DNA from: Octopus vulgaris
Lineage: Eukaryota
Assembly: GCA_951406725.2 (NCBI GenBank)
Contig: OX597842.1
Coordinates: forward strand, 15,376,001 to 15,440,000
Direction: 5' to 3'
DNA: 64,000 nucleotides
Both the position numbers and the translations under genes were made by a program. The notes beneath the pieces were generated by a model. It did no database searches. It was not told the origin of the DNA and worked only from the letters and a program-made list of their open reading frames with translations. The number at the start of each line of letters is the position of its first letter. The stretch's first letter is position 1. Below, in pieces: positions 2,500-55,279 of the stretch.

Positions 2500-4090
2500 C
2501 AGTAATGGTACCGAAATTCATTCTCTAGATTCCATCTTCAATGCCCATTCAATAATTATCAAGACAATTGTGTATACGTTTGATAATGATGGAATAGGGG
2601 TGAGGAAAGCTACATAAGGAGATCATAACCCCATGAAGGATCATTTCAATCTGGAGCTGAAGAGATCCAAATCAATCCATAAGATTATTGGCATCTGGTG
2701 ACAGAAGACGTGAAAACAAAATTGCATATGAAACTTGTGAGGAGTTTTGATACTCCAGGAGAAAAGTTTAGAAGATTGGAGAGGGCGAAGTTCATCTGCG
2801 ACAAAGTGAAACACAACCTTCGAGTGAGAAGATATTCACCCAAGATGTGCGCACAAACTGACGCGACAGCTGAGGTCTGGCTTCAGCTCACGAGAAAGCC
2901 AAAAGTGTCTAAGTGATAATTTTCAACTGCATGATCTCTGATGGTAAGAGGATGTTCCTTGTCACACAAGTGTAGTGAGACAAGTGTTTCCCATGGATGA
3001 GTTTGCGAAAAGGTTTTAGGATAAGGGCACTTGGCCTCATTCATCACCTGGTTTGAGCATCTGGCATAAACTGATCATAGAATAAGCTCGTGAGTAGCCC
3101 CACACTTACCTGGACGTTAAAATAGGACATTGATGAGCATTTCCACAAGAAATCTTGTGGTAAGGCAGGAAAAGGGTTGATAAAGTCTTTGGCAAACAAG
3201 GAGTAACTCATGATGCCTAAAAACCAGGGGTTTGGCCAGAATTCTTACTCAATTTTTCAAATATCACTTTAAAACCTTCCGTTTGGACTTTATTCCAGTA
3301 TTTCATGAGCTCCCAATCCTGAGCTATGTTAAAACAGAATTTCATCTTCGCCAATTCATTCATGATTATTCATGAGAGCTTGGAGAGGAACTCACATTTC
3401 GTCTTGCTCAAAATAGGGTCCATTTGTGTTAGAATAGCCGCTGATAGTTTTGTTACCTTTAAGTGATACTGAGACACAAAGTTCCGAAGTGGTATCTAAA
3501 CTTTGGACACTTTTTTCTGATATAATCGGTATCTGTACATCCATACACAAAAACTTATGACGATTAAAAGATAAACTTAGAAAACTAGAATAAAGATTTA
3601 AAAACGAGAAAAAATGATGGAATATAGTTGAATAATGGGAATTTGAATATTAGGTAAACGGATGTTTAGAAACAAGAACCTGATTACCTATGCATAAGAA
3701 GTAAGTAAAAAAGAAGCTCATTCATCCACACACCTACACTTTCACAAAAACGCATTCACACATACACTCAGAGAAAACTATGGAGGGTGTGCACGGGTGT
3801 TAGATTGATGCAGTCTAGGAAGAGAGATAGAAAAAAAGAAAGTTGGAGAAAATATTAACAATGTAGATATATGGGGAAATAGATGGTACGAACAAAAGCA
3901 ACCCAACTCACAGATATCCTAAATTCGGAAGGTTTTCGAAGGAACCGCGTTGAATATACGTGATATCATTGTCATTCAAATTCCTGTAACATAAAACGGA
4001 GTTCATAACAAACATATAGAAACGATTAGTGACAAAATGTTAAATATTATGACGAAAAGATTCGATATGATTAAGAAATTTAAATGTATA
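2500..4090. repeat. Exon-bearing duplicated unit, copy A (unidentified coding-like relic + intron + LRR exon)
   Basis: Near-identical to 13560-15225 and 15226-16580. Confidence 0.92.
3912..3983 (-). CDS. LRR exon 7 (72 nt): NLNDNDITYIQRGSFENLPNLGYL; gene probably continues beyond the left edge
   Basis: Acceptor ttttatgttacag, donor GTGAGTTG, 72 nt, phase 2-2. Confidence 0.92.
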
Positions 4091-4099
4091 TGATGATGA

Positions 4100-5330
4100 G
4101 AGGGACGGCGAGAAGGTAGAATATGAAGAGGAGGGGAGGAAGGAAGAGAAGAGAAGAAGACGGAAAATAACAAAAAAAAGAAGAAATAGAAGAGGAAAAA
4201 GAAGGAAAGTAGAGGAGATGTAGTAGAAGAAGAACAAGAAGAAAGGAGAGAATGAAGAGTTGAAGGAGGAAGAGTAGAAAAATAAGAACTAGACGAGACG
4301 AAGGAGTAGCAGAAGTAAAAGATGAAGATGAAGAAGAAGAAGAAGAAGAAGAAGAAGAAGAAGAAGAAGAGGCAACAAGAAGAAGATGACAAAGAAGAAG
4401 GAGAGAAAGAAAAAGAAGAGCAGAAGGAAAACAACAAAATAAATTGCGAAAGGAAAAAGAGGCGAAAGAAGACGATGACAACAAAAGGAAAGGGAAGAAG
4501 AAGAAGCAGCAGGAGCAGCAGCAGCAGCAGAAGAAGGAGGAGGAAGAGGAGGAGGAGAAGAAGAAGTAGAAGAAGAAGAAGAACAACAACAACAACAAAA
4601 GTGAAGAAGGACAGGGGGTTGTGAATGAGAATGAAGAGTAGGAAAGAACAAGTTGAAGAAGATTAAGAAAGAGAAGAAAGACAGAGAAGGAGGAGGAGGA
4701 GAAAAGAGAAGAAGAGAAGCAAGATAGGTATATAGAGTAGAAAAAGAACATGGACAACAAAGACAACAACAATATTAAAGAACAAGTCATGCAGAAGAAG
4801 AAGAAAGGAAATGAAAAATACAAGAGTAACAGGAAGAAAATTTATGAAAACAAAAAGGAAAAATATAGAGAAGAAGAAGAAGAAGAAGAAGAAGAAGAAG
4901 AAGAAGAAGAAGAAGAAGAAGAAGAATAAGAAGGAGAACAGCAACAACAACAACAACAACAACAACAACAACGGCAATGAGTAGAGGAGGCAAGAAATGT
5001 AAAAGCCGGATAAAAAGAACAATGAGGAAGAGGAAGCGGGGAGAGATAAATTGATAGATGCAGAGGAGAGTGTGAAGAAAATGAAATTGAAGAATAAGAG
5101 AAAGGATGGATATGAAGAATCAGAAGGAAAAATGTAGACGAGTAAAAAGACAAGGAAGAAGGAGAAGAACAACAACGACAACAAGTATAAGTAGAAGTAT
5201 AAGTAGGAGTAGGAGGAGGAGAAGAAGCAAAGAAGAAGAAAAAGAATAAGATGAGGAGGAGCGAGAAGAAGGATGAAGAAGGAGGATGGGGACGATGAAG
5301 AAGAAGAAGCAGAAATAGAAGTCTAGAATG
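4100..5330. repeat. Purine-rich (GAA/GGA/CAA)n low-complexity region
   Basis: Compound trinucleotide microsatellites; source of the poly-S/F/L/K/R pseudo-ORFs. Confidence 0.95.
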
Positions 5331-5626
5331 TTAACCAATACACAAACAGACACACACAACCAAAGCAGGAGAAAAAAAAGATTTATGAAGGGGAAGTGGT
5401 TAGACATAAATTAACATACGCAGAAGGACATAGGGTAGGAAATGAAAGAAAGAATAAGAGGAAGAATATGACGAATAAGAAGAAAAAAGAAGTCAAAGAC
5501 GTTAATCAGTGTTGACGGAGGAATAAATACCGTACATGATATAGAAACCGAATTACAGATACATTTTGCTACACTCGCATACACGCATCCATGCACCAAC
5601 TGATACAAACACGCACAGAGACACCA

Positions 5627-5665
<39 letters not shown>

Positions 5666-6755
5666 CATAATTATTTGCACCACATTTTCTCTTCAATTGT
5701 CTCAAACTGTTATATCAGAAATCTCACGAATTTCTCCCCGCAACATTCGCAGTGATTCACAAACAATAACACAGTTCGGATAGAGAAAGATTGTAAACAT
5801 ACACAGAAATACACCCGCATGCACTCAATGGGTTTCGTCTTGTATCGTGCATTAACATATCCCATATTTTTAGAAATGGACCCACACTCACACTCTCACA
5901 TTTACAAAAAATAAAACTGAACTTTGGATGTATAGACAAGGGAGGTTAAAATGAAGGATAGGCACATATTACAAATTTAGAAAGATAACGTAATGAAATA
6001 TTAAAGAAGATTTAAATATAAGAGGTTTCAGAGGAATAGAGAATTCAGCGGATGATAGAGAAAGAGAAAGTGATATGAAGAAATCATGAAAGAGCATTTT
6101 TACATAAAGGAGAAGAAGAAGAAGAAGAAGGAGGAGGAGGAGGAAGTGGAGGATAGAGGAAATGTAAATAATGTAAATAGTGAGATGGTAGTAGTTATGA
6201 TATTGATAGTAATGAATATGGCAAAGGTGAAAATAAATGGTGGTACTATCCATAACGAAGAGATTATGATGATGACGACGAGAGTGATGTTGTTAATGCT
6301 GATTGTTATGATAATGATTGAGGATTAGCATTTCAATGGTGAATATGAATATGATATTGAGGATGATGACGATGATGGTAATGTATTTATCGTCCACGAT
6401 CAGAATGGATTTCAAGATATTGTATCTCTATCGTGGTGCTATTTGGTAATAAATGATCTCGATGATGAAGATGGCGACGATGAACTTGACGATGTTTATG
6501 AGTGAGAAATGTAACAATGAAGATGAGAATAATGAGTCTGATGAGGACAGAGAGGAAGACGTCCATAGTTATCACGGTGGCAATGGAGGTGAATTGAATA
6601 GAGAGTTTGGAGGAATAAGAGACTTCAGCTGATGATGGAGAAAGATAAAATGTTATGAAGAACGTACGGAAGGAAATTTTACACACACGAGAAATAAAGT
6701 AGAAGGAGGCGGAAGAGGAGAAGGTGATGAAGAAGAAGAAGAAAGAAGGAGCATT

Positions 6756-6897
6756 AGAAGAAGAAGAAGAAGAAGAAGAAGAAGAAGAAGAAGAAGAAGA
6801 AGAAGAAGAAGAAGAAGAAGAAGAAGAAGAAGAAGAAGAAGAAGAAGAAGAAGAAGAAGAAGAAGAAGAAGAAGAAGAAGAAGAAGAAGAAGAAGAA
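6756..6897. repeat. Pure (GAA)n tract, >45 units
   Basis: Seen directly. Confidence 0.97.
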
Positions 6898-6908
6898 AAG
6901 AAGTAGAT

Positions 6909-6980
6909 ATATATCTTAAACTGGACAAATTTCGGAAGGTGTCTCCCTTGATTTCCTTAATATCATTAGAAGACAAATAC
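6909..6980 (-). pseudogene. LRR exon lacking a donor (YLSSNDIKEIKGDTFRNLSSLRYI)
   Basis: Acceptor ttttgtgttccag and an open 24-aa LRR, but it runs into atctacttc and the (TTC)n tract with no GT. Either a real deletion or a local assembly collapse. Confidence 0.75.
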
Positions 6981-7052
6981 CTGGAACACAAAATGGAGTT
7001 AAGAAGCAATTTTATGAGACATTTAGGAAAAAAGTTTGGTTAAACAATTAGA

Positions 7053-8937
7053 TTTTTTGCGCACCGTGCCCGTAAGGTGCAGCTCTATCTAAAATACTCC
7101 GTGTCACGTTGAAAGGTCGGTCTTCTTTTAATTCCCAGGCATACTTTGCCAAGCTGGTCTTCATCCTACTTTCGGGGTTTCCGAAGGAATTTTTATGCGA
7201 ATAAAATCGGGTTTTGAAAGAATTTTCAGAAGCCCCGGTACAAGTTCTATATTAGCGTGAGCCTTCTATCTGCACCTTGGCTCTATACACGATTCCTTTC
7301 TCCAGACATTTTCCTTCCAACGGACAGGAGGTTCCATCATTTCAATTATAATTTTTAAAAAGAGAATAGGCACTATGATTATTAGCAGTTATCCTACTGT
7401 TGTGTTGGTTAAAAAAAAAGAGGCGAAGTGCACGGTGCACATAAAAGACCCATCAAATCTGATTTATGCCTGCTAGAAAAATATTTTATTTCATTCCAGG
7501 ACAATAACTCTTTAAATCAAAGAAGCGAACTCTTGAATTCCTGCAGACACGCAACTGAATTTAAAATGTCGGTTAGCGATATACCATATGGATAGTGTAT
7601 ATTTTATTGGTTCTTGGACTAGTTTGATTTATGACTACATGATTTATTTCGCATCGCAAAGTTATTGTATATATTTCGAGATATTTCTCAAGAAAAATCT
7701 TCGACTGTTATACGTAAATATTATTTTCTTGTTTAAGTTTCTACATTTATTTTATTTCATTGTATTTTTATAAACCCATTTTAATCGCTTAATTTATAGA
7801 TAATTCGATTTAGAGTGTTCTAATTTGCATATCTTTTATTCGAATTTTATTATTATGCACTCAGCAATTTTTTTTTAAATGTTGTTTAAATATATACGTC
7901 AGGACGTAGAGATGCTTTTATGTGGATATTTGTATTGTTGGCATGCATCTATGTATATGTGTAGGTAAGCGTGTATGTTTATAATTGTGCACATACATAC
8001 ATGGATGTATATGTATGCACGTGTTCACTTAGATTTGTGCAGATGTATATTTACGCACTTTCTTCCATATATTTATAAATGTGATCTGATATGTGTATTT
8101 ATGCTAATATACACTTTTGTATAAACATGTATACGTACTTTTATTTTGTGTGCGTTCGTTGCACATATTCAGCCACCTATTTTTCTTTCTTCCTTCTTTT
8201 CCTTTCCTTACGAAGGTATTTTTCTTTCCCCATTCGTTATTTGTATACAGTCCTTTAACTTTTCGCTCCTCCTCCCTCCTCCCACTCACCACTTTCTCTC
8301 GCTAACCGTTATATCTAAGATCCTTTATTTTCTTTTTCTTTCCCCCTCTCTGCGTTTTAAAATTCACTTCTCATCAAGATTGTCTGTCATAACTTCTATA
8401 TGTATACACCAAGTGATTTTTGCATGCGAGTATGATTGCGTACATATGTATACATGTGTATATGTATATGTGTGTATATATTTACGTCTTATATATGTCT
8501 GTATATGTATGTAGTCTGTGTGCATCCATCTGTGTATTTTGATGTATATATGTATATTAATGGTTAAATATCGCTTTATATTGTTGTAAAATATTTCTCT
8601 AATGTAGTGTGAAAATTTTAATGTATTAATTGTATTAATTGTATTATATTTCGTATATAATCATTTGCAATATGTATTTTGAATCAGCTCTTCAATTTAA
8701 GGTTTTCTTTGACTTTTATAATAGGATGAATTTATATTGAATTCATTTTTTATTTTGTTTAGTTTGTTCATTGCATGCATAAGACCGTTGATTGAAAGGA
8801 CCAATGAAGCAAATCCATTTTTAAAAGTGTATCATTTAACTAGATTTTATCATATGGTTATTTCTGTTCTATTTTAAGAAAACGGTCCTACGGGAACGTG
8901 AAAGTCCGAGTAACAGCTTTTGGCATATTTCTGCTGC

Positions 8938-8940
<3 letters not shown>
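7053..8940. mobile_element. Penelope-like element remnant with an inverted GIY-YIG segment
   Basis: Minus strand 7053-7330: CPLEGKCLEKGIVYRAKV...GASENSFKTRFYSHKNSF...TSLAKYAWELK. Plus strand ~7455-7570: DLCLLEKYFI...LNQRSELLNSCRH (PLE C-terminus), then an AT-rich tail ending in (TA)n. Confidence 0.8.
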
Positions 8941-8993
<53 letters not shown>

Positions 8994-9092
8994 GCATAAC
9001 TTGCACTACACTTTTCCCTTCAATTGTTATACACTGATATATCTGAATTCTCAAGAATTGCCCTCTACAACATTCGCAGTGATTCACAAGCA

Positions 9093-9132
9093 ACCATCTT
9101 CGATTTCCATGATATCATTAGAATTCAAGTAC
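9093..9132 (-). pseudogene. Truncated LRR exon (YLNSNDIMEIEDG...)
   Basis: Acceptor ttttttgtcccag is intact. After ~13 codons the exon is fused to intron-cassette sequence (caacattcgcagtgattcac, also at 5741-5760). The 3' half and donor are deleted, and an in-frame stop follows. Confidence 0.8.
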
Positions 9133-9275
9133 CTGGGACAAAAAATGAGTTACGAAGCACTTTTATGAGACATTTATGACAGAACTTTGGTTAAAAATTT
9201 ACATGAAGGAAGAGAAGAACAGCAAAGAAGAAGAAAATGAAGATGAAGAAGAAGAAAATAAAAAAGAAAGATAAG

Positions 9276-11725
9276 TGTTGTGTGGACGCCTCCAGACGAT
9301 GAAGTGGATTAGCCCAATACGTAGATAGAGAGGGAGACGTCTAGACGTCAGAGAGGAGAAGGGTTGAGTAGAGGTCATCCGAACGTGCGATATAATAGTG
9401 GCGACGAGGTTTCGAATAGTAATGAAAAGGAAGAGTTACTGAAAGCAGTCGTAAATCAACGAGAGTAGCAGCAGCATCTACGGTTGTTAACAGAATTGTT
9501 ACTGCAGTCGAGAAATACGACCGAATCATTTTCAGCAGATGGTTTTGCAAATTCCATCGAAGAATTTCACTACAATCCGGATGAAGGAACTACTTTTGCT
9601 GCATATTACAGACGATAGGAAGACATGTTCCGAGAGGAATGCAAGGGATGGCCTTGTGAAAGGAAGGTAAGGCTCCTTTTCCGAAAGCTTGCGACTCCGG
9701 AACACGAAAGATTTTGTAACTTTATTTTGCTGAGAAAGCCCGCGGGGTTGTGTTTTGATGAAGCCATAATTATTTTGACTAATACTTTTAGCGAGTAAAA
9801 ACATTCGATGAGAATGTTTAAATTTAAAGAAAAACGAGTCCGATGATTTTTTTAACATGTTCCGGTATGCTTAATAAGGCTTGCGAAAGGTTTAAGCAGG
9901 AAGAATTAACGCCAAATATGTTCAAGTGCCTAATATTCGTTAAAGGGCTAGTGGCAACGGAAGACGCGGAAATTAGAAAAAGAATATTATCAAAGTTGAA
10001 TCAAGATGTGAAACTCACTTTGCAGAAAGGGGCTGAGGAAGGCCAACAAATAATAAACCTTCGAGATGATACAAGAAAGTATGGTGCTATGGTTTCGGAG
10101 ATCGACATTTGAAGAAAGATTGCTCCTTTAAAGATAAAACCTGTTTTAAGTGTGGTAAAATTTGACATATACTGACGAAATGCCGGTCAAAGAAAATGGT
10201 AAAACTGAAGAAAGTCTACTCAACAAAAGTAAATTATATCAGACAAAATCGAAAATTTGTGTTGGTAGAAATAAATGGGTTTCAGACCAAAATGCAATTA
10301 GATTCCGGTTCGGACGTATCGATAATAAATACAGCAACATGGAGTAAGATAGGCAGACCGTTGTATAAAACAAAAACTACTAGAATAGCCTACGGTGTGT
10401 CAGCGGAACGAGTTCAATTCTTGGGCGAAATTTCACCAGAAATAAAACTTAAAAACAGGACGCGGAAATGTAAACTAATGGTATCTAAGAATATATTGAA
10501 TCTGTTTGGCACAGATTTAATACAAGGATTCGACCTGTAGGATCTATCCCTGAATACATTATGTAACAAGGTGAATGCGTCACAGACCGTGTCAGAGAAA
10601 GCATGGGAACAAATGAAATTAAAATTGAAAAAGATGTACCCTGTTATTTAAAAAATTAAAGTAAAGTTTGAGTTGAAAGAAGATGCGGTGCCGGTGTTCA
10701 AACGGAAAAGAAATGTACCTTTTGCAGCGTTAAACCAGGCTGAAAACAAATAAAAAGATTGGAAGACATGGAAGTTATTGAAAAAGTAGATTACTGTGAG
10801 TGGGCGGCTCCTACAGTATATATAAAAAAGAAGAACAACGAGGTAAGAGTATGTGCAGACTGGTCTTAATGATTGTTTAAAAAATTACACTTATCCGCTT
10901 CCAAACCCAGAAGACATATTTGCTAAGTGCAGTGGCGGGAACATGTTTTCCAAGCTGGATTTGTCAGAGGCCTAATTCCAATTACTGTCAGATGAAGAAT
11001 GTGCTAAAGTATTAACAATCAATACTCGCAAATATGACAACATTTTTGCAGGTGTATACAATAACACCGAATCCAAATACAGAGTTGGGTAGGTCACCAG
11101 CAGATATGCTGCTTTCCAGAAAAATTCGTTCTATTTTTGACAAATGGTTGCCGGGCAGGAAACAGAAATAGAAAATTCGGGAAGAAAAACGAAATTTTTT
11201 AACATAGGTGACAAAGTGTATTTTAAAATATATAGAAACGGATACAGGACTGCGAACAAGGAAGTATAACTGGACATCTGGGTAACGTGATGTACACGGT
11301 AAAAGGACCAAAATATGAACACAGAAGGCATTTAAACCAATTAAAAATATATATACCAAAAGCCAAGAGAGGCGAGAAGAACCAATGGATTTATGGTATG
11401 ATTTGTTCCAGGTCCCAGGACTACAAACAAAAGTGTTCGAGGTCCCAGAACCACAAGCAAAAGCAGAACCGACACGTAGGTCGAACAGGAAGAGAAAACC
11501 TACAGAAATGATGGAAATTAACGCTAAGAGAAAAAGATATGCCAGTTTCTCACCGAGGAAATAAAATTGATAAATTTGGGTTTAAAAACTCAAAAGAGGC
11601 AGGTGTTGTGCGGACACCTCCAGACGATGAAGTAGAAAAGCCCAATACGTAGATAGAGAGGAAGAACTCTAGACGTCAGAGAAGTGAAGGGTTGAGTAGA
11701 GGTCATCCGAACGTGCAACATAACA
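9276..11725 (+). mobile_element. Internally deleted Ty3/Gypsy (Mag/K02A2.6-like) LTR retrotransposon with 122-bp LTRs
   Basis: LTRs 9276-9397 and 11604-11725 (TGTTG...AACA). PBS gtggcgacgagg, PPT aaaagaggcagg, TSD ataag/agaag. Gag (FHYNPDEGTTF), protease QLDSGSDVSII, and RT start (WAAPTV...VRVCAD, FSKLDLSEA) fused to the integrase C-terminus. Confidence 0.92.
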
Positions 11726-12131
11726 AGAAGAAAAAGAGAAACGATAGAGATGTCAATAATGTAGATGATACCCAATTACACATATATTTTGATACAATCG
11801 CAAATCCGCATCTATACAGAAACAAACACACACGCACACAACTACACACACACCGGCCCCCTTCCCCCAAGCCATACATATAATATACGTAGTTTACTCA
11901 AAGCAAGTGTGTGAACATACACAGTTATATACACATGCATGCACTAAATGGTTTCGCCTTGCATCATGAACCCACACATCCCGTATTTCAGAAATGGACC
12001 CACACGCACGCTCTCAAATTGATGAACAATAAAACCTTTCTTTGGATGGACGGGTAAGGGATGGGCACATAATACAGATTAGGAAAGATATCGTCAATGA
12101 AATACTACAGAAGGAAACAGATTCAACTTAT

Positions 12132-12205
12132 AGATATGTAAACCTACACAAATCTCGGAGGGTGTCATATTTGATTTCCTTGATGTCATTAGAATCCCCA
12201 AGTGT
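12132..12205 (-). pseudogene. Decayed LRR exon (HL..SNDIKEIKYDTLRDLCRFTYL)
   Basis: 74 nt (2-nt insertion) and donor mutated to ATAAGTTG. The acceptor and cassette flanks are retained. Confidence 0.85.
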
Positions 12206-12569
12206 CTGGAACATCAAATTGAGTTAAAAAGGAATTTTATAGAACATTTCTGATAGAGTTTGTGGTAAGCAATTAGATGAAAGAAGAGATGTACAGTAAT
12301 TCAAATTGGTGATTAGTTTGATTACGAAGACGTTGTCGATAATGATGATGATGATGAATCGTATGAGAGAGGAGAAGAATGAGTGCGATGGGGAGGAAGA
12401 AAACTGTTGTGATAGTGATGGTAGGTGTTGTGATATTTATAGTGATGAATATGATAAGGCAGAGGTAAAAATACATAGTGATACTATCCATAACGAAGAG
12501 ATGATGATGATGAGGAGGACGAGAGTGATGTTGTTAATGCTGATTGTTATGATAATAATATAATGAAAT

Positions 12570-12806
12570 TATTGTATACAGTGCTCAGGTGCACCACAAC
12601 TTGTCAGAGTATATGCAGTAATGTACAAATGCCTGGAAAGCGAACAATGCATGAGTCAGATACATGCTTGTGTGTGTATGGAGGGGAGAAAATCAAGTGC
12701 AGTGTTGGAGAATCTCAGAAAGCATGGAAGTTTTGAAGGATGCAGCGCTCCGACAACTAACAACTGATGCCGGCAGTTTGTTCCATGCTTCAGCAAATCT
12801 CAGCGT
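12570..12806 (-). mobile_element. 5'-truncated CR1-type LINE 3' end
   Basis: EAWNKLPASVVSCRSAASFKTSM (CR1 C-terminal motif). Interrupts sequence that is contiguous in the paralogous cassette at ~6310. Confidence 0.75.
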
Positions 12807-13478
12807 AATGATTGGGGATTAGCATTTAAATGGTGAATATGAATCTGATACTGAGGATGATGACGATGATGGTAATGTGTCTGTTATCTATGATCAGGAT
12901 GCCCAGGAGATTGTGTATTCCTATCGTGGTGCTTTTTGGTAATCAATGATAACGATGATGACGAGGGTGACGATAAAGTTGACGATGTTTATGTTTGAGA
13001 AAGGTAACAACGAAGATGAGAATAATGACGGTGATGAGGATGGAGAGGGAGACGTCAATAATTATCACGGCAGTAATTGTGGCGAATTAAATTGTAGAGA
13101 TTTTAGAGGAAAAGAGAACTCAGCGGATGATTGAGATTGAGAAACTCTTATGAAGAACTCAAGAAAGAGATTTTTACACGCACGAAACGAAGAAGAAGAA
13201 TAGAAGAAGGAGGAGGAGGCTGAAGTATAGGTGTAGGGGGGGAAGAAGATGAAAAAGAAGATGAAGGAGAAAATAAAGAGAAAGAGAAGAAAACGTGAAA
13301 CAAGTATTAATATTCAATGACGATAGAGATTTCAATAATGTAGATGATACCCAGATCTAATTACACATATATTTTGATATACTCGAATACCCGATTCTAA
13401 ACACAAACAAACAGATAAGCACACAACCGGACGCACCACTGCTCACACACACACACACCTACACACACACACACACTT

Positions 13479-13514
<36 letters not shown>

Positions 13515-15032
13515 GTATAAAATCCGTGGTGTGGTCAGAGTAAGTTTGAGAAGATACACAGTAATGGTACCGAAATTCATTCTCTAGATTCCATCTTCGA
13601 ATGCCCATTCAATAATTATCAAGACAATTGTGTGTACGTTTGAGAATGATGGAATAGTGGAGAGGAAAGCTACATAAAGAGGTCATAACCCCATGAAGGA
13701 TCATTTCAATCTGGAGCTGAAGAGATCGATCAGAAGAGATCCAAATCAATCCATAAGATTATTGGCATCTGGGGACAGAAGATGTGAAAATGAAATCGCG
13801 TATGAAACTTGTGAGGAGTCTTGATAATCCAGGACCAAAGTTTAGAAGATTGGAGAGGGCGAAGTTCATCTGCGACAAAGAAAAACACAGCTTTCGAGAG
13901 ATATTTCACATAGATGAGAAGATATTCAGCCAAGATATGCACAGAAATAGACGCGACAGCTGAGTTCTGGCTTCAGCTCAGGAGAAAGTCAAAAGTGTCA
14001 TTTGAGGTGTAAAAACCTGATTAACTGATACTTTTCAACTGCATGATCTCTGATGTCTGATGGGAAGGGAATGTTCCTTGTCACACAAGTGTAGCGAGAC
14101 AAATGTTTCACATGGATGAGTTTGCGAAAAGGTTTTAGGATAAGGGCACTTGGCCTCATTCATCACCTGGTTTGAGCATCTGGCATGAACTGTTCATAAA
14201 ATAAGCTCGTGAGTAGCCCCACACTTACCTGGACGTTAAAATAGGACATTGATGAGCATTTCCATAAGAAATCTTGTGGTAAGGCAGGAAAAGGGTTGAT
14301 AAAGTCTTTGGAAAACAAGGAGTAGCTGATGATGCCTAAAAGCCAGAGGTTTGGCCAGAATTCTTACTCAATCTTTCAAATAAAACTTTAAAACTTTCCA
14401 TTTGAAATTTATTCCAATGTTCCATGAGCTCCCAATCCTTAGCTATGTTAAAACATAGAATTTCATCTTCACCAATTCATTCATGATTATTCATGAGAGC
14501 TTGGAGAGGAACTCACATTTCGTCTTGCTCAAAATAGGGTCCATTTGTGTTAGAAAAGCCGCTGATAGTTCTGTTACCTTTAAGTAATACTGAAACACAA
14601 CGTTCCGAAGCTGTATCAAAAATCTTGACACTTTTTTCTGATATACTCGGTATCTGTACATCCATACACAAAAACTTATGACGATTAAAAGATAAACTTA
14701 GAAAACTAGAATAAAGATTTAAAAACGAGAAAAAATGATGGAATATAGTTGAATGATGAGAATTTGAATATTAGGTAAACGGATGTTTAGAAACAAGAAC
14801 ATGATTACCTATGCATAAGAAGTAAGTAAAAAAGAAGCTCATTCATCCACACACCTACACTTTCACAAACACGCATTCACACATACACTCAGAGAAAACT
14901 ATGGAGAGAGTGCACGGGTGTTAGATAGATGCACTCTAGAAAGAGAGATAGAAAAAAAGAAAGTTGGAGAAAATATTAACAATGTAGATATATGGGGAAA
15001 TAGACGGTAAGAACAAAAGCGACCCAACTCAC

Positions 15033-15104
15033 AGTTGTTCTAAATTCGGAAGGTTTTCGAAGGAACCGCGTTGAATATACTTTATATTATTGCTATACAA
15101 ATAT
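15033..15104 (-). CDS. LRR exon 6 (72 nt): YLYSNNIKYIQRGSFENLPNLEQL
   Basis: Acceptor ttttatgttacag, donor GTGAGTTG, 72 nt, phase 2-2. Paralogous to the exons at 16384 and 3912. Confidence 0.92.
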
Positions 15105-16383
15105 CTGTAACATAAAACGGATTTCATAACAAACATATAGAAAAGATTAGTGACAAAATGTTAAATATTATGGCTAAAAAAAATAGATATAATTAAGAAA
15201 TTTAAATGGAGATGATGATTAGAGAGAGGGCGAAGTCCATCTGCGAAAAAGTGAAACACAACCTTCGTGTGAGAAGATATTCACCCAGGATATGTATACA
15301 AACTGACGCGACTACTGAGTTCTGACTTCAGCTCACGAGAAAGCCAAAAGTGTAATTTTAGAAGCAAAAACCTGACTAAGGGATAATTTTCAACTGCCTG
15401 ATCTCTGATGTTAAGAGGATGTTCCTTGTCACACAAGTGTAGTGAGACAAATGTTTCCCATGGATGAGTTTGCGAAAAGATTTTAGGATAAGGACACTTG
15501 GCCTCATTCATCACCTGGTTTGCGCATCTGGCATTAACTGATGATAAAATACGCTCGTGAGTAGCCCCACACTTACCTGGACGTGGGAATAGGACATTGA
15601 TGAGAATTTTAACAAGGAATCTTGTGGTAAGGCAGGAAAAGGGTTGATAATGTCTTTGTCAAACAAGGAGTAACTCATGATGCCTAAACAACCAGAGGTT
15701 TATCCAGAATTCTTACTCAATCTTTCAGACATAACTTTAAAACCTTCCATTTGAAATTTATTCCAATGTTCCATGAGCTCCCAATCCTGAGCTATGTTAA
15801 AACATAGAATTTCCTGTTCGCCAATTCATTCATGATTATTCATGAGAGCTTGGAGAGGAACTCACATTTCGTCTTGCTCAAAATAGGGTCCATTTGTGTT
15901 AGAAAAGCCGCTGATAGTTCTGTTACCTTTAAGTGATACTGAGACACATCGTTCCGAAGTTGTATGTAAAATTTGGAAACTTATTTTCTGATATACTCGG
16001 TGTCTGTACATCCATACACAAAAACTTATGAAGATTAAAAGATAAACTTAGAAAACTAGAATAACGATTTAAAAACGAGAAAAAATGATGGAATATAGTT
16101 GAATAATGAGAATTTGAATATTAGGTAAACGGATGTTTAGAAACAAGTACATGATTACCTATGCATAAGAAGTAAGTAAAAAAAGAAGCTCATTCATCCA
16201 CACACCTACACTTTCACAAACACGCATTCACACATACACTCAGAGAAAACTATGGAGAGAGTGCACGGGTGTTAGATAGATGCACTCTAGAAAGAGAGAT
16301 AGAAAAAAACAAAGTTGGAGAAGATATTAACAATGTAGATATATGGGGAAATAGATGGTAAGAACAAAAGCGACCCAACTCAC

Positions 16384-16455
16384 AGTATTTCTAATTTCGG
16401 AAGATTTTCGAAGGTACCGCGTTGAATATACGTGATATTATTCAAACTCAAAAAT
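16384..16455 (-). CDS. LRR exon 5 (72 nt): FLSLNNITYIQRGTFENLPKLEIL
   Basis: Acceptor ttttatgttacag, donor GTGAGTTG, 72 nt, phase 2-2. Confidence 0.92.
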
Positions 16456-17303: not shown

Positions 17304-17361
<58 letters not shown>

Positions 17362-17368
17362 TAAGAAT

Positions 17369-17410
<42 letters not shown>

Positions 17411-17639
17411 TTCTTTTATTTGTCACCAGAGTGAAGGATGAAGGGGACAATACAAAGACAGACATAAAGTGTGGAGGTTTACAGAAAATGGATTGAGAAA
17501 ATGAAAAGTATACACGGTATGCATTAGAAGAAAGGAAATATACATAGTATGTGACACTAGAAAAAGATGTTTAGTAGCGCGGAAGTACGACGACGTCCTC
17601 GAGGGGGGGGGGGCTAAGCGTCGATGAAGATGAACTGGC

Positions 17640-18185: not shown

Positions 18186-18189
18186 GAAA

Positions 18190-19470: not shown

Positions 19471-19525
<55 letters not shown>

Positions 19526-21581: not shown

Positions 21582-21657
<76 letters not shown>

Positions 21658-21903: not shown

Positions 21904-21975
21904 AGTGAACTTAAACTCAAAAGATTTTGGAATGTTTCTGCCTTGACTTCCTTGATATCATTACTTTCCAAATAT
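21904..21975 (-). CDS. LRR exon 4 (72 nt): YLESNDIKEVKAETFQNLLSLSSL
   Basis: Acceptor ttattttacag, donor GTAAGTTG, 72 nt, phase 2-2. Confidence 0.92.
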
Positions 21976-23015: not shown

Positions 23016-23087
23016 AGATATGATAACCTGGAAAGATTACTGAAGGTTCCTATTTTGATTTCCTGGAGTTTATTTTTCCACAAAAGC
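23016..23087 (-). CDS. LRR exon 3 (72 nt): LLWKNKLQEIKIGTFSNLSRLSYL
   Basis: Acceptor ttttatgttccag, donor GTAAGTTG, 72 nt, phase 2-2. Confidence 0.92.
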
Positions 23088-27432: not shown

Positions 27433-27504
27433 AGAGTTTTTAAACTGGAGAGATTTTGGAAAGTTTTTTCGTTGATTGCTTGGATATCGTTTTGAGCCAA
27501 ATTC
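27433..27504 (-). CDS. LRR exon 2 (72 nt): NLAQNDIQAINEKTFQNLSSLKTL
   Basis: Acceptor ttttattctccag, donor GTAAGTTG, 72 nt, phase 2-2. Confidence 0.93.
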
Positions 27505-43248: not shown

Positions 43249-43320
43249 AGTTCAGTTAAATTGGTCAAATATTGGAAGGTTTCTGGTTTGATTTCAGTTA
43301 AATGATTATTGTTCAAATTC
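43249..43320 (-). CDS. LRR exon 1 (72 nt): NLNNNHLTEIKPETFQYLTNLTEL
   Basis: Acceptor ttttatgttccag and donor GTAAGTTA. Exactly 72 nt, phase 2-2, matches LxLxxNxLxxIxxxxFxxLxxLxxL. Confidence 0.93.
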
Positions 43321-44826: not shown

Positions 44827-45385
44827 TTTGTATGTACACACAAGCGGCTAAGGCCGAGCTGCCCTGGGATTGTTAATACCTAAAATAGATATCATCTCAT
44901 CATTTCTTTATATTTTGGGTAAACCGTTGTTTAAAACATGCCAAGATGCCAAAAATCCTCAGTTTGTCTGTGAATATTAATTCACTGAGAATTGTAAATA
45001 CACAGAACATAAGAAAAAACTAAAATACAGTTTACCTTTATATTCATTTTTTCTGTGGTATATGTTTTTATAACATACGGTACACATTTTCAAAATATCT
45101 TTAAAGTAGTTGTTTTTCTAACAAGTAAACTTTTACAATGACTAACGTAGTGCTTGAATTATACAACGTTCATATTTCGCCCTTGGTTGCAGACAAGTGG
45201 TGAAGATCTGACATTTGATATTCATGATGTCGGCTGGCAAGCTAAGACTTCATAGATTTTATCTTACAGAATATGGTTTATTGTACTCTGTACCTTATAT
45301 ATCTTCGCCTTTGCAACTATACTTCAAACATAACAAGGTGTTCTACACCCACAACCCTTTAATTACTAGATTTATTTTGATTGTG

Positions 45386-45527
45386 AAATGATGTTAGGCT
45401 TGCTAATCATCATCTTGTAGGGAAGATCTAATTATTGTGTTGTTATCACTTTTCATTAGTCAATTCATGAGTTGTTTTTTCTTTATTGGTCCATTTCGGT
45501 AAACTAAGTTTTATTACACTTTCAAGC

Positions 45528-45570
<43 letters not shown>

Positions 45571-48500
45571 TAGACATATCGTTATATGTCACTAATTACA
45601 ATAATAATTATACATAACTGATGCTACCAATTCACATATTAATGATAATTTAGAGCTAAGGCATTCAATGTTGATATTATTTCTGTGTGCTTGCATTTTT
45701 GTAATGATGAGTTTTAATGTTGGCGCCGTTGATTAATTTTTTAAATGATGGCTATATTTTGGGCCCCAACCAATTGTGCCCTTTGTTTATTCCCGCAAGA
45801 ATCGATGTCGGATGAAGAAATAATTATAGTTATAAGTTATTTGCATTACTCAGTTGCTTCATAACATCTATTTTAGCTAATTCTAAAACCGTTAGTGGTA
45901 ATACTCTTCGGAAACTACATAGAAGTCCCTTTGTCTAGCATTGTATCACTGTCACCCGTGGCCAATGAATGACTTTATCACTGAAACTACACCGCTGTCA
46001 TATTGTTTCCCACAGTTTTGCCTATAACCGTAGACTGAGTGGAAGATGGGTGATACGCTGAGCCAAAGGGCGACTGTGTTTGCGCCTACAAAGTATTTCA
46101 TTATTTGACGTAATCCCTATATTTACAGGCTGTTCCATTGTCCACCGCCTGCTAACCTACCGAATAGTAGATTCTCACTCAAGATTTGCACATTCACACA
46201 CACATTCATCGCCATCCTTAATTCGCGAGTCGAGCGAGTATGTCTTGGCAACATATCTAATGCTTTTACTAATTGCTTCAGGTGCCAATGTATTTCCGAG
46301 CAGTCATAGATACTCTTTTATGTCTCCAACGCTAAACCTAACACAGATGTCGCATCCAACACTTGACTGGTACACATTTACAGCTGAGTAGACTGGATCA
46401 ATCCTGATCAACGTCCCAAACACCGAGCTTAGTTCAAGAACTGAACCAATCACATTATGATCGTGCAGCGACATGCTAATCACTGTGTCATATCTTTCAC
46501 ACACACTGAGGTACTACACGTAGAACCTGATACCAACAGCTCAAATGCAGCCCAAAACAATTTTCCCCTCTCATCAACAAGTCACTGGATCCACGCTCAA
46601 ATCATATCCAGTGTTATGGCAGTTTTAACACTCAAAACATCTCAGCTCAGATTTAATCTATTGGCTGAGGCAAAAGTCACAGAGATGGGAAAATGATAGA
46701 ATATCATAAAATGCCTGACAAGAAGTTGTCAAAGTTGTCTCTTGAATAAAGTCCAACTTCTTTTCACACAAAAACATCTACAAATCTAAGGATTCTGGCA
46801 GACATAAAGAATTCTCTTTTTTTTTCTTTTGATCATGAAGGAAGTCACTTTTGAAGAAGAACATCACTTTAGGAGAAAGTAGATCCCGTGTATATCTAGG
46901 ACTGCATTTAAAAGTAATGTTTCTTCATTTTAGTACCAGAAAATATTTCAATCCTAACAACTTCCACATTTTGACGCTCAAGTAACCAAAGTAAGACCAA
47001 TCTTTTTATTAACATTCCTTCAGTAATATTAACCGCTATGTTTAGTTCTTCATCCTCAGAACATCGGATTCCGGAATGTCCTCCATGTTCCTGTCTTCGT
47101 TCCGGTGGGAATTTATCTGTAACAATTTAAACGGAGCATTACCATCCTCACTCTCAACCATATCACACAACCAGCTTAATTAATGAGCTCTACTCCTTCT
47201 TCGAAAGGTAGGAAGTAAAATCAAGTAGGATTTGAACTTAAAACGCAAAGCGCTAGAATATTTCCATACGAGACCCAGTCCGACATCCCTACACTTTCTC
47301 TAGTCCACTGGCCTCTTTAGGTACGCAAAAAGCCGTAAGTTAAGGACGTCCTCGGCTAGATTTTAAGTCTGAATACCGAATGCCAGATTAAATACCACAA
47401 CTTGCGGAGAATAGTCTCGGTAATAATGATGGCAACGAAGAACGTTTCGGGGACCACTACCCTGGGATGATCATCAAGCAAGCAAGCAAGCGTGTGTTTG
47501 TGCACGCACGTGTGTATGTAAGCATGAGTGTATGTATGTCCTCAGTTTGTGAATGTTAATTCACTGAGGATTGTAAATACACAGAACATAAGAAAAAACT
47601 AAAATACACTTTACTTTTATATATAGGTCCAACACTGATTCCAGTAGCTGAAAAGGGGACTGGAACGATGCATTGATTAAAATGGAGAATACATTGAACA
47701 TAATAAAAGTCTAAATATGTAAAATTTATTGAATAATATAACATTTCAAAATTACTGTTTCTTTTGGGCACCCACTCGTTTGTATGTACACACAAGCGGC
47801 TAAGGCTGAGTTTCCCTGTGATTATTAATACCTAACAAATATCATCTCATCATTTCCTTATATTTAGGGTAAACCGTTGTTTAAAAGATGCTAAGATGCA
47901 ACCAATCCTCAGTTTGTCTCTGAATGTTAATTCACTGAGAATTGTAAATACACAGAACATAAGAAAAAACTAAAATACACTTTACTTTTATATTTATATT
48001 TTCTGTGGTAAATGTTTTAAGAACATACGGTACACATTTTCAAAATATCTTTAAAGTAATTGCTTTTCTAACAAGTAATTTTTTCAATGACTAACGTATA
48101 CAATGTTCTTATTTTGCCCTTGGTTGCAGACAAGTGGTGAAGATCTCACATTTGATATTTAGGATGTCGACTGGCAAGCTAAGACTTCATAGTGTTTATC
48201 TTACAGAATATGGCTTATTGTACTCTGTACCTTCTTCGCCTTTGCAACTATACACCACATAACAAGGTGTTCTACACCCACAACCCTTTAATTACTAGAA
48301 TTATTTTGATTGTGAACTGATGTTAGGCTTGCTGATCATCATCTCGTAGGGAATATTTGATAATTGTGTTGCTATTAAGAAAATTAAAAATGTCTAAATA
48401 ATATATATCGTATATTCACCATCTGCAGGTATGGATTTCTGTTTAATTCGGACAACCCCAAATATGTAAAGAAGTAAGTTAAGTCGCTTGCATCGATCGA

Positions 48501-49289: not shown

Positions 49290-50972
49290 GATTTTTTATT
49301 ATCCACCAGGGGCGACGGAGAGGGGACATTACAAAATATTGGGGACATAGAATATTATAATTAATAATATGAAAATGAATTTCAAATGAAAAAATGGTAA
49401 TGTGAAAGCGATGCTAACGGCCCCATCCGCCAGCATCACTTACCTGTCCTTCATCACCCATTTCCAATTACAATTCCTTCCTTTCTTATCACACTCTTCG
49501 TTTCCCTTTCATACTTCTCTATCATTTCATCCTCCATTGTCACTGTCATCCATTTTATACCCTCTTCCTCACACTTCCTCACCAATGTCTCCATAAATTC
49601 ATATTTCAAAACCGCGTAACTACCATCTTCACGTTCGCGCCATAAGTCTTTATGTACCATCCTTTTTGAGTTCTGGGTGTCCCTCTTCCTCGCAACACAT
49701 AAAAAATAGGTCCTGGGACTTTGTTCGTTCTGTGTGTCTGCATTTGTTTTTGTTTTTTTGTAGGTGGGGAGTGGGTGGAATCGCTGTTTGCAGGGGAAGG
49801 ATGGTGTTGGGGTGGGTTGGGGTTTCGTACTGTTTTCTTTTTTCTTTCTTTTTCTTTTTTTTCTCCCTTCTTCCCACTCTTGCTGGATCTCCTCCACTTC
49901 AGTTGCTTCCCTTTCTGTTTGGTTCTCCTTTTCTTTAGTGTCTTCCTCTTTTGGGGGTTCCGCAACGATTTCCTTTTCCTTTGGTGGGGGAGGGCAGTAG
50001 GCTCTTATGTGACCCCTCAGGCCACACTTATAGCACCTGGGCGCCCTGCCTTCTACCCACACTCTCATAATAATGTTCCCTGTTCTTATATTTTCTGTCA
50101 GCCTTTCTATTGTTTCCGCTTCTGTCTGTATATTCATGTCCAAGGTAGCACCTCTCACGCCTTCGTATTTCATAGTGGCGTGGAGGATGTCCACCTTTTT
50201 CTCGTTTCCCTTAATCACCGCTGCCGTTATGTACTCACCCTCTAGGTGTGGAGGTATTCCCTCCACCCTAATTCTCGTAGTTCTCCTGTTTAGGTACGAA
50301 GGTAGTAGGTATACCTTCTCCGTCTTTACCACCTTGGCTGCTATTTTTCTGGCAACATTCTCACTTCTATATTGCACCGTTACAGTTCCATACTCCATTC
50401 CTCTTGTCTGGTAAACAATTTCCTCTCCAGTCTGTTTCATTGGCTCTTCAATAGCTTCCATATTTACTATTTCCACCCTTCTTCCTCCATTCACGTACAC
50501 TCTATATTTGATGGTTCTACGGTTGAACCACTCGCCACGCTTTGCTGGAGGTGACAGCTCGACTTCGCCGTTCTCCTCCTCTTTCATAAAATCCTGGAAG
50601 CCTGGTAATTTAGCCAGGTCCACCTCTTTTTCTTTCGACTTCCTCATTATTCCTGCGTACGTACTTTCCAGCTTCCTGTCCATTTTTTCCACTGCTCTTT
50701 CCAACTCCTCCTCAGATGTCGATAATTCCGACAAACTTTCAAATAAATTCTTCCCGGCCATCTCACCCGTTTGGGAGAGGCGGCTCATAATCACCTCAGA
50801 CCGAAAACGGCCGCCCGAACAGAAACAGTGTAACGCGTAGAACCAGTGTAACGCGAAACCGCATCAACCGACGTTCAAAATTCCACAACAACAACAATTC
50901 ACTTTCTGTTCTTTTTTACCGAATTTTACGAGCGTAAACAAACACGACCGACGTCAACCGAATCTCTGACTC
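49290..50972 (-). mobile_element. Full-length ORF1-only Tx1/L1-like non-autonomous retroelement (~1.7 kb)
   Basis: 5' end gagtcagagattcggttgacgtcggtcgtg, a single ORF, and a ~160-nt 3' UTR ending gcccctggtggataataaaaaa. No ORF2. Confidence 0.82.
49454..50788 (-). CDS. Gag-like ORF1 protein with CCHC zinc knuckle (444 aa from ATG)
   Basis: Uninterrupted ORF with RRM-like TTRIRVEGIPP, EGRAPRCYKCGLRGHIRAYC and basic RKKRKRKKK. Confidence 0.88.
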   Translation of the reverse strand: MSRLSQTGEMAGKNLFESLSELSTSEEELERAVEKMDRKLESTYAGIMRKSKEKEVDLAKLPGFQDFMKEEENGEVELSPPAKRGEWFNRRTIKYRVYVNGGRRVEIVNMEAIEEPMKQTGEEIVYQTRGMEYGTVTVQYRSENVARKIAAKVVKTEKVYLLPSYLNRRTTRIRVEGIPPHLEGEYITAAVIKGNEKKVDILHATMKYEGVRGATLDMNIQTEAETIERLTENIRTGNIIMRVWVEGRAPRCYKCGLRGHIRAYCPPPPKEKEIVAEPPKEEDTKEKENQTEREATEVEEIQQEWEEGRKKRKRKKKENSTKPQPTPTPSFPCKQRFHPLPTYKKTKTNADTQNEQSPRTYFLCVARKRDTQNSKRMVHKDLWREREDGSYAVLKYEFMETLVRKCEEEGIKWMTVTMEDEMIEKYERETKSVIRKEGIVIGNG

Positions 50973-53230: not shown

Positions 53231-53769
53231 ACCGGCTGACAGACACCACGCGTTCCATCACCAATTTGAATTGTCCACCTCACAGTAAAAACGTACAAAA
53301 GAACGCGTAACATGTTTTAAACCAGCCGCATGATCCATGAATTTTATTTCTCATTAGAATCCATTATAGATCCATTAGTGGTTGTCTACTGTAAAACTGG
53401 AGTACAGTATTTCGATATCGATCAGTAGAATTATATTTATCGGAATATTTCTTCCATTTTATACTCTCCTTCATAACAACAATATATGCAACGATTTTTG
53501 CAAAGTTTTTATACATTCCTTTCCCTGAATCTTGCCATAAAGAGTTTTGATGTAATAAACTAACATAATCAAAGTTCGGATATTGTAAATTAAAGATTCC
53601 ATGAGTCAGAATACACAGAAATAATTTACTTGACTTAACGGCAGTTAACATATTTGCCCTTTTTACTCCAACATAACATTATATTTTTAAGCTGAGGTAT
53701 TTAGAACATAACCAACGATAATTTAAAATATCAAATGCGGAAAATATATAGAAATGGTCTAATACTTAC

Positions 53770-53951
53770 AAATTTTCAACATTTGGTGGAATGGGTTGCG
53801 GGATCGAAGTCAGTTGCCGAGATGAACAATCTATTCTTGTCTTAGAATTTTCACATTTGCATATGCTGCAAATGTCTGACGCCGCATGAGACTCCAAACA
53901 GAAACTCATAGAGAGTATCAACACAAACGTCAATTTCAATTGTTGGAACAT
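53770..53951 (-). CDS. First coding exon of an LRR protein: signal peptide plus cysteine-rich LRR N-terminal cap (LRRNT)
   Basis: MFQQLKLTFVLILSMSFCLESHA (signal-like) then SDICSICKCENSKTRIDCSSRQLTSIPQPIPPNVENL (CxxCxC...C...LTSIP..IP LRRNT). Acceptor ttttcttcttttacag lies 20 nt upstream of the ATG (exon 53770-53971). Donor TT|GTAAGTA is phase 2. Confidence 0.93.
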
Positions 53952-55279
53952 ATTTCGAGGCGTTGATTTATCTGTAAAAGAAGAAAATACAAATTACCAG
54001 AAACTTCAATGTCAGTTCTTTCCCATTGCAAATCCTTCGTAGGACAAGATTTGGCCCCTGTTCCATGAGATGACTTTATCTTTGATTGCACTTTCAGTTT
54101 GATATTTAAACTTACGGAACTGAATTCAATTATAATTCAAAGTGGTGAACATAATAGATTATAACTTTAATAAGTGATAATGTCGAAGATAAACAGAACA
54201 TCAAGCGCCCTTACATACACACGCATACACACACAGACACAGACACACACACACAGACACACACACACTTATACACATGTGTGTGTGTGTAATGTTCTTC
54301 CTATGTTGTTCTCCTTTCCTTCAACATTTCCGCTCCCGTCAGACTCCATGGAGATATTGTGGGAAGTTGCTGCAACTGACCAACTCTCTATAAACAGCCT
54401 TCCACTCAGCTTTCTACCCTCAATTGAAGAAACTGAAGCGACATCTGTTGATAACACCACAACAGCATCTACAACAACGCCATCAACAGCTGAGGACCCC
54501 TACACCTGAACATTGGCAGCGGGAATATTTGCTCCCTGATTCCACGGAAGAGCAAGCTCTTCCCAAATTTCCTGCTTCCCAAACCAACAACAACAACAAT
54601 CTAAATTCTTCTTTCGATCAAACCTCTTCATATTGCACAGACTCGTTGATTGTAGTGTCTGTGGTGGTGGTCATCTTTGTCGTCGTCTTGGTGGTGCTGG
54701 GCGTGAATATCAACGGGGGTAGGGCCTTCAGAATTGCCACGGTTTACACATTGACAGGAGCTGGAAACACAGATTTCTTCAATCTCGCATTTTATTACTT
54801 GTAAGAGACTAGATTAGAATTTGACGGATGGAAGAACTGTGTAGGGCTAGTAGTACATTATGAGAGGAATGTGAACCCTCGAAAATCTGCTTAAAATCTT
54901 CCAGCTTTCTGCAGGATTACCCTCTGTATGGCGGCTTAGGAATGCTCTGGGTGTTGATGCTCAGACACGCGGTGAGATTGCGACAACTGCAACGATTTCT
55001 TGACGGTGAACGTGTGTGGACTCAGTGAAGCACTTCTCCTTGACTAGGCTGCAGTCCTGGGGGAAGCGAAGCCTGAAATCCTCTGCCTGGTGCCTAGAAT
55101 GTCAGACGAGCACGCATTTATTGAGTATTCGAGCATGATATTGAAGGAAGGGCCAGTAACTGCTGGCATCACTGTACGGAATGAGTGGGGGATATTCCAC
55201 TGTGACCGACACATGAGAAAACCATTTTAGTGTTGACGGATGCGTCAAAGGATAATTCGGTTTCAAACAATGGACCAAT

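Follow-up and report, generated by a model that had tools for sequence, protein, structure and literature searches.

An Octopus vulgaris adhesion GPCR family with arrays of one-repeat exons, mosaic genes and amino acid change concentrated on the concave leucine-rich-repeat face

A stretch of 64,000 nucleotides from Octopus vulgaris (the window; contig OX597842.1, here termed C29, positions 15376001-15440000 of the 2.8-Gb genome G000) carries an array of 72-nt exons that each encode one leucine-rich repeat (LRR), and raises the question which type of receptor is assembled from such units and what drives their change. The original prediction, made from the window alone, had proposed a variable LRR recognition receptor of immune or chemosensory function. 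According to the present analysis, the gene is with near certainty an adhesion G-protein-coupled receptor (aGPCR) of octopus expansion group 3, an identity which that prediction had missed, whereas the proposed variable recognition surface is supported by an excess of nonsynonymous change on the concave, predicted binding face of the repeats. We consider it the best explanation (probability approximately 60%) that the LRR arm, variable and encoded in the germline, senses non-self ligands that themselves change, e.g. microbial or parasite surfaces; it is the selection pattern from which we infer the non-self class of the ligand.

Within the window, the gene is located on the minus strand and starts with an exon (53770..53971) comprising 20 nt of 5' untranslated region (UTR), the signal peptide (ATG at 53951) and an LRRNT domain (Pfam E 6.7e-6; 26.0 bits, above the cut-off of 25.8), with phase 2 at its end; since this exon begins at an acceptor site, an additional upstream UTR exon is expected (none was located). 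LRR1 (43249..43320), LRR2 (27433..27504), LRR3 (23016..23087), LRR4 (21904..21975), LRR5 (16384..16455), LRR6 (15033..15104) and LRR7 (3912..3983) follow on the same strand, all seven being AG-72 nt-GT exons of phase 2-2 with a leucine codon restored at every LRR splice (TT/CT + A/G), exactly as had been described; this exon pattern was absent from 99 of 100 local shuffles. The dead exons that had been noted are three in number, also on the minus strand: 12132..12205 (74 nt, frameshifted, donor GT lost), 9089..9132 (acceptor and 44-nt stub) and 6909..6980 (frame mostly open, without donor, continuing into a GAA microsatellite). The homologous intron flanks reported for the exons are real but belong to two families: three copies of a 1.35-kb unit, ~90% identical, around LRR5, LRR6 and LRR7 (13853-15525 versus 15224-16873, 90.8%; for LRR7, the third copy, 2500-4111 versus 13559-15233, 89.9%), and shorter flanks, 69-84% alike, around LRR1-4 and the dead exons. 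Of the motifs quoted by the original prediction, the acceptor motif occurred exactly at two sites and with at most two mismatches at four (two of these being dead exons), the donor motif exactly at two and with at most two mismatches at four, and the downstream motif solely at 12003 and 5885, both adjoining dead exons. The tandem units and the shared flanks support the suggested origin of the array by duplication of exon-plus-intron cassettes.

The intron at 1..3911 (minus strand) leads leftwards out of the window, where the C-terminus had rightly been placed. In the 200 kb left of the window, a secretin-type exon for the transmembrane helices TM5-7 terminates the gene ~49 kb from the window edge, and the other exons were located by tblastn with named relatives, LRR8 (C29:15375335-15375264) lying 665 nt from the edge; LRR8 and the TM5-7 exon are on the same strand as the array. 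The resulting model comprises 25 exons, all GT-AG, with a single 1038-aa frame up to the first stop and the predicted order LRRNT - 8 LRR - LRRCT - Ly6-like - HRM - GAIN/GPS - seven-transmembrane domain (7TM). Beyond LRR8, all minus-strand, these are LRRCT (C29:15363955-15363786), two Ly6/uPAR-like exons (15359605-15359514, 15356688-15356505), two HRM exons (15351514-15351400, 15348038-15347869), five GAIN/GPS exons (15346534-15335832, by tblastn) and five in-frame exons of a secretin-type 7TM (PF00002; 15335122-15326760, TGA after CVHK). The GAIN domain ends in a GPS just ahead of TM1 (PF01825 on close relatives) with an autoproteolysis consensus, HL|T, at which cleavage is predicted from sequence. 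Residues 575-1038 are 96.8% identical to O. sinensis P0004, which bears PF00002 and PF01825 and ends at the same residue as the window gene; the link from LRR to GAIN at the locus is given by frame continuity and full-length relatives rather than by a spanning read. The 7TM and GPS exons rule out Slit, LGR, TLR and VLR identities.

The Ly6-like domain contains 12 Cys with a terminal CC-x4-CN, and its Pfam matches (UPAR_LY6_2, E 0.051; Toxin_TOLIP, E 7.7e-4) are both below cut-off; the Ly6 label, taken from Cys pattern and sub-threshold matches, is tentative. No SEA domain was found ahead of the HRM in the window gene, where the flanking exons join in frame (phase 1-1); paralogue B has three SEA-region exons, and the Pfam matches that relatives give to SEA (E 2e-5 to 3e-4) are also below cut-off. 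A fold search with the Ly6/SEA model, the Ly6 part not being covered, yielded only generic ferredoxin-like matches, among them GPR126 (Z 7.5; 89 aligned at rmsd 3.3) on a par with unrelated rows. Other deviations concern the signalling end: the stop of the window gene lies ~40 nt ahead of the last junction, the C-tail ends after helix 8, and position +6 of the tethered agonist (Stachel), which has a hydrophobic consensus in aGPCRs, is Gln in the window gene and its two closest relatives, compared with Leu, Ile or Met in others. The public prediction P0214, an exact match to the locus, connects LRRNT with LRR6-8 and the 7TM, omits LRR1-5, LRRCT, the Ly6-like domain and the GPS, and has a shifted frame; it was rejected as evidence of exon skipping, being a faulty prediction of unclear support, and the current annotation of the window gene is unreliable.

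In a tree of 29 GPS-7TM rows, among which no ADGRA row was included, the window protein was nested within a clade of 19 octopus rows (support 100/100) with Gigantopelta as sister (92/85). This clade includes A0A0L8FKK5, A0A0L8GYR2 and A0A0L8FLR8, which are assigned to group 3 in supplementary file 3 of Ritschard et al. (PMC6408891; here, as for the other cited works, reference is made to the available part of the source); the window gene therefore qualifies as a member of the published group. Among named proteins, the closest belong to Octopus vulgaris and O. sinensis, and group-3 proteins carry the NCBI label 'ADGRG6-like'. Full-length profile matches were obtained among molluscs, namely gastropods and bivalves, and in one brachiopod and one nemertean (Gigantopelta, Haliotis, Nucella, Ylistrum, Saccostrea, Dreissena, Lingula, Tubulanus), with an LRR-(Ly6-like)-SEA-HRM-GAIN-7TM architecture that contains, by a simple motif count, 2-6 repeats; no large expansion was apparent among ten named lophotrochozoan proteins, in whose genomes copy number was not counted, and a word search with the Gigantopelta stalk matched only itself. 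One O. bimaculoides family member (P0017 / P0111) has a C-terminal Death domain above the Pfam cut-off (E 3.3e-6), so that a GPCR tail bears a signalling module of immune type; a Death-domain member was also recorded by Ritschard et al. (PMC6408891). As further variants, the Ly6-like domain is doubled in P0020, SEA-HRM units are repeated in P0022, and the terminal LRR type is present twice in the C10 gene (C10:6.79-6.81 Mb).

The search for paralogous loci that had been suggested revealed ~55-60 family copies on at least ten contigs (at least 40 NT-exon matches, 40 of 40 scored; at least 61 LRRCT matches; at least 60 7TM rows, 55 near full length), with ~17 loci in tandem within C29:13.1-16.3 Mb. 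The NT-to-LRRCT span was fetched for 13 genes, chosen among the closest relatives and not at random, and only in these were LRR exons counted: together they contain 150 intact and 31 dead LRR exons, with 8 intact exons in the window gene (O), 6 in A, 31 in B, 11 each in g10 and g6, 26 in g11, 12 each in g17 and g8, 9 in g5, 6 in g2, 7 in C9a, 6 in C9b and 5 in C10. Diversification by exon number, as proposed, is thus evident from the range of 5-31 among paralogues, and counterparts in other species differ as well; neither an invariant isoform nor a fixed exon number nor one-to-one orthology was found for the family. Exon typing by flanks alone disclosed tandem runs, repeated multi-exon blocks and blocks common to otherwise unlike genes: the LRR3 cassette type recurs in A, B, g6 and g11, in each case as a two-exon block with LRR4, and of the 13 arrays only those of O and A have LRR4 followed by LRR5. 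Paralogue A is devoid of LRR1 and LRR2. A 2-kb direct duplication (39376-41388 / 45369-47400, 88.6%) surrounds LRR1 in the window; the segment bounded by this pair is missing in A, and the pair may have mediated the loss of LRR1. Five loci on C29, g3 (13.34 Mb), g4 (13.40), g11 (14.82), g14 (15.73) and g15 (15.96), have NT exons and, in four cases, LRRCT, the 7TM exons listed including none where one would be expected, and may be secreted or truncated members; two 7TM exons on C29 (18972994-18973289, 20733864-20734134), each matched in two halves, probably represent frameshifted pseudogene copies.

Ectodomain and membrane part of these genes have different nearest relatives. In a set of 13 genes with NT, LRRCT and TM5-7 exons (C8 replacing g11; exons paired by position and strand, the pairing being unsure for C8), the 7TM exons fell into five classes, with a likeness of 95-99% inside a class and 62-79% across classes. 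The identities for NT/CT/TM were 99/99/70% between O and A, 87/83/98% between O and B, and 77/81/99% between A and g2. Mantel tests indicated a correlation for NT-CT (rho 0.64, p 0.001) and none for NT-TM (rho -0.04, p 0.61) or CT-TM (rho 0.13, p 0.14), and in approximately unbiased tests each module rejected the trees of the other two, the NT tree being weakly supported. Along continuous DNA, O resembles A mostly at 95-99% over a region that begins in the 5' flank and reaches the first GAIN exons (save the LRR1/LRR2 segments), and matches B at 93-98% beyond them; the switch therefore maps to the GAIN exons. In A, the transition from O-like to g2-like sequence passes through a stretch merely 70-83% like g2, which a simple assembly misjoin would not produce. 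O. sinensis P0002 has the TM2-7 class of the window gene behind a different GAIN and TM1. These comparisons show, at the level of sequence, an exchange of whole modules between paralogues that the original prediction had not foreseen.

In LRR proteins, the rule LxxLxLxxNxL marks the positions of the concave face, and six concave codons per repeat were set beforehand accordingly; exons were paired by intron-flank likeness alone (at most 10% difference on each side, each exon used once), and distances are uncorrected, without a likelihood model. Across 50 independent pairs, the nonsynonymous difference (pN) of concave codons amounted to 140.8/718 = 0.196, compared with synonymous differences (pS) of 0.023 for concave and 0.039 for all codons, 0.024 for introns, and pN values of 0.007 for core and 0.036 for other codons (Fisher p 6e-11 for the concave excess). 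The excess was present within genes (0.177, 26 pairs) and between genes (0.223, 38 pairs), with a bootstrap pN/pS of 6.0-18.3 for 44 pairs from 9 genes. As the inner codons 3 and 4 alone gave a pN of 0.19, with splice-adjacent intron bases at background, the excess is not a splice-edge effect. Nonsynonymous change is concentrated on five concave codons per repeat; the two fastest, codons 23 and 1, are positioned on the beta-strand in the AlphaFold model of the relative P0085. In its hypervariable concave face the array works like a VLR. Between O and A, 17 of 36 concave residues differ versus 3 of 102 others (counted by eye), the numbers of differing nucleotides in their three dead exons being 1, 1 and 0; in the dead-exon control as a whole, six of the eight pairs differ by 0-1 nt.

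The same exons bear on two readings that dispense with a sensor. It is highly improbable that the pattern reflects neutral churn in a repeat-rich cluster with the window copy as a decaying duplicate: the dead exons, the SEA loss, the short C-tail and the relaxed non-LRR exons would fit. Against it stand the contrast, within one set of exons, between a core pN of 0.007 and a concave pN of 0.196, the background levels at synonymous and splice-adjacent sites, the open 1038-aa frame and the identical end point of the O. sinensis model, and for the family this explanation is already largely refuted. Escape rather than detection, i.e. a conserved host function in adhesion or GAIN-mediated mechanosensing with a parasite or virus attaching at the LRR face, would explain face-restricted selection without any sensing role and is compatible with other lophotrochozoans sharing the architecture with few repeats; we regard it as very unlikely, since the six-fold repeat range, the ~55-60 copies and the swaps onto five 7TM classes are left unexplained.

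Symmetric 72-nt exons are duplicated and lost together with their intron flanks, which gives the 5-31 repeats per gene observed. Under the sensor reading, the arrays and chimeras would arise by unequal crossing-over and gene conversion among clustered copies, and a changing ligand would exert the diversifying selection that tunes the concave beta-sheet, with exon skipping probably contributing isoforms. Binding or pulling of the ligand might then be relayed by the self-cleaved GAIN domain and its tethered agonist to G proteins, as is established for vertebrate aGPCRs, perhaps weakly in the window copy. A more far-reaching proposal, tentative and in our view rather doubtful, is that the ~55-60 aGPCRs form a germline repertoire in which LRR arms, rebuilt by cassette gain, loss, conversion and skipping and variable between individuals, are set on at least five 7TM classes as an anticipatory immune or self/non-self system.

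Transcript data for the locus are derived from four contig sets whose RNA status is guessed, mapped on 6910-23190 at 90% likeness, where paralogues are inseparable. In X15 (organism B), a joint at 15104/16384 (CT..AC, depth 319) coincides with the predicted intron to the base, and joints at 16452/21904 and 21973/23021 fall within a few bases of the predicted positions; X18 and X19 (organism A, two studies) contain a joint at 21973/23016, and X22 shows none of the three predicted LRR3-LRR6 joints. The three predicted introns are, hence, joined in putative RNA contigs, without locus specificity. Backward joints (23084/23014, 23085/21922) and the link 16442/6916 were dismissed as evidence of exon scrambling, as a differently ordered paralogue or a 22-nt match suffices for them. 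Whole-repeat skips appear in annotated isoforms of relatives (1208 versus five of 1184 aa; 1394/1298/1298/1250; 1387/1363/1339/1298; 1204/1132 aa), and a Dreissena pair (1089/1065) differs by exactly one LRR. Near-identical exons can yield false skips in annotated models; the repeat missing from P0076 is a unique one. Isoforms of Haliotis and Gigantopelta that differ by 24 aa were discarded as LRR skips because the difference is located in the C-tail.

Expression of group 3 has been reported from skin, suckers and gills, in O. bimaculoides with its peak in the axial nerve cord (PMC6408891). A code for neural wiring or cell identity, in which the receptors serve as adhesion labels on arm-nerve-cord neurons alongside the expanded protocadherins and LRR number and face select the partner, would agree with this enrichment and with tandem co-expression (PMC6408891), with the Nogo receptor and LRRTM2 as closest solved folds (generic, though, for 24-aa LRRs) and with annotated isoforms that vary by whole repeats. 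However, a concave pN five times pS among very recent copies fits an arms race better, as do 31 dead exons in 13 genes and chimeras, which would hardly suit a stable endogenous code; moreover, C. minor expresses the group in gill and skin (PMC6408891) and the available part of a brain-atlas account leaves the family unmentioned, so that we consider a neural code unlikely. That polymorphic LRR faces tell individuals apart by ligands of conspecific skin or gametes, be it for allorecognition, for self-avoidance of suckers or for the recognition of mates or gametes, appears distinctly improbable: expression in skin and suckers (PMC6408891), an MHC-like focus of change on the predicted binding face and, if A should be an allele of the window gene, the allelic nature of the variation would speak for it. 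Allorecognition loci are typically single-haplotype loci, unlike the ~55-60 loci on at least ten contigs found here.

Several observations weigh against a variable non-self sensor. Codon 6, counted beforehand as concave, is slow (pN 0.026); dead exons retain a residual concave excess (11/144 versus 13/408), nearly all of it from two divergent pairs; and two or three bases differ in 41 of the 99 concave codons that changed, so that short gene conversion may have imported some of the changes. The non-LRR exons are weakly constrained (pN/pS ~0.77 versus B and g10), and without SEA, with a short C-tail and with Gln at +6 the window copy may signal poorly. Paralogue A, 97-99% identical to O in its ectodomain, could be a misplaced allele of the 5' part of O; a third copy, g10, with an LRRCT 99% alike, indicates that ectodomain sharing is not only allelic. 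No LRR skip joint was found among the 15 joints covered of a total of 27, which are not locus-specific. Finally, besides the nerve cord peak mentioned above, Ritschard et al. favour a neural adhesion role, and their site tests gave no positively selected sites (PMC6408891).

Compared with known systems, the nearest is octopus aGPCR group 3 itself, as published (PMC6408891): it is the same clade, in which GPS and adhesion 7TM are accompanied by LRR in some members, the genes are clustered in tandem and positive selection is seen at branch level. It was described with 22 sequences, 5 of them with LRR, versus the ~55-60 copies found here, and one-LRR exons, 5-31 repeats, concave selection, the Ly6-like/SEA stalk and mosaics go beyond the available account (PMC6408891). 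The exon design has its closest likeness in brown-algal ROCO genes (PMC11378527), candidate immune receptors with 72-nt phase-2 one-LRR exons, exon shuffling, concave selection and splice variants; these, however, encode cytosolic LRR-ROC-COR GTPases (PMC11378527), whereas the octopus gene places an extracellular arm on a 7TM with swapped signalling ends. No ROC-COR GTPase was found in the octopus gene, whose 1038-aa frame is filled by other domains, and no such Pfam match occurred in six relatives. The designs are convergent, and the family can be regarded as a germline analogue of brown-algal ROCO shuffling.

Lamprey and hagfish VLRs are incomplete germline genes, somatically assembled from cassettes and attached by a stalk and a GPI anchor. 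With these the octopus gene shares a 24-aa LRR solenoid between LRRNT and LRRCT and concave-face variability, and VLR chains were among the fold matches. The likeness that had been drawn holds for the design only, as the octopus gene is germline-complete, its continuous frame of GT-AG exons and the spliced joints in contigs leaving no place for somatic cassette filling, and its C-terminus is GAIN-7TM instead of a stalk with GPI anchor. Vertebrate ADGRA2/3 (LRR-Ig-HRM-GAIN-7TM) and ADGRG6 (CUB-PTX-SEA-HRM-GAIN-7TM) are conserved single-copy genes; both share the aGPCR core with the octopus family, ADGRA in addition the LRR arm, and ADGRG the SEA-HRM-GAIN order and the nearest vertebrate 7TM likeness (~30%). 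Ig, CUB and PTX domains were not found in the octopus family, Pfam scans of relatives giving no Ig family after LRRCT, where a Cys-rich domain is situated. In the crab Eriocheir, LRR splice isoforms of VLR2 differ in repeat length and bacterial binding (PMC10045472); this is one gene diversified by splicing, and the available text mentions neither a GPCR part nor multigene recombination.

Adhesion GPCRs are usually conserved single-copy genes, and an arms-race pattern on one of them is for that reason unexpected. To our knowledge, no diversified recognition receptor is known from cephalopods. A review names FREPs for molluscs and Dscam for arthropods (PMC13428168). The family itself is already published (PMC6408891), and one-LRR exon design with concave selection is known for ROCOs (PMC11378527); no account of cassette, selection or mosaic biology of this family was found in the open-access or bioRxiv literature. 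The family is a testable candidate, as its hypervariable positions are defined, its exon arrays can be counted and its signalling ends are swappable; an expansion once interpreted as neural adhesion is reframed, and the splitting and truncation of these genes in annotations are explained. If the mix-and-match repertoire were true, it would correspond in animals to the LRR receptor clusters of plants and form a GPCR-based parallel of VLRs without a somatic step.

Some further features of the window are apparent. GAA/GAT microsatellites situated inside the exon cassettes cause a strong purine skew at 4001-8000 and 22001-24000, with maxima of 0.57 for AT skew and 0.54 for GC skew. Long retrotransposon-like frames, by eye reverse transcriptase-like, gag-like and endonuclease-like, occupy introns and the 5' flank (60795-62962 and 49457-50863, minus; ~30515-32350, plus), and a 1-kb inverted repeat (56785-57806 / 60184-61211, 93%) lies upstream of the gene. 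Over a short element at 12340-12882, probably a high-copy transcribed repeat, contig depth adds up to 1,400-33,700 in each of the four putative RNA sets.

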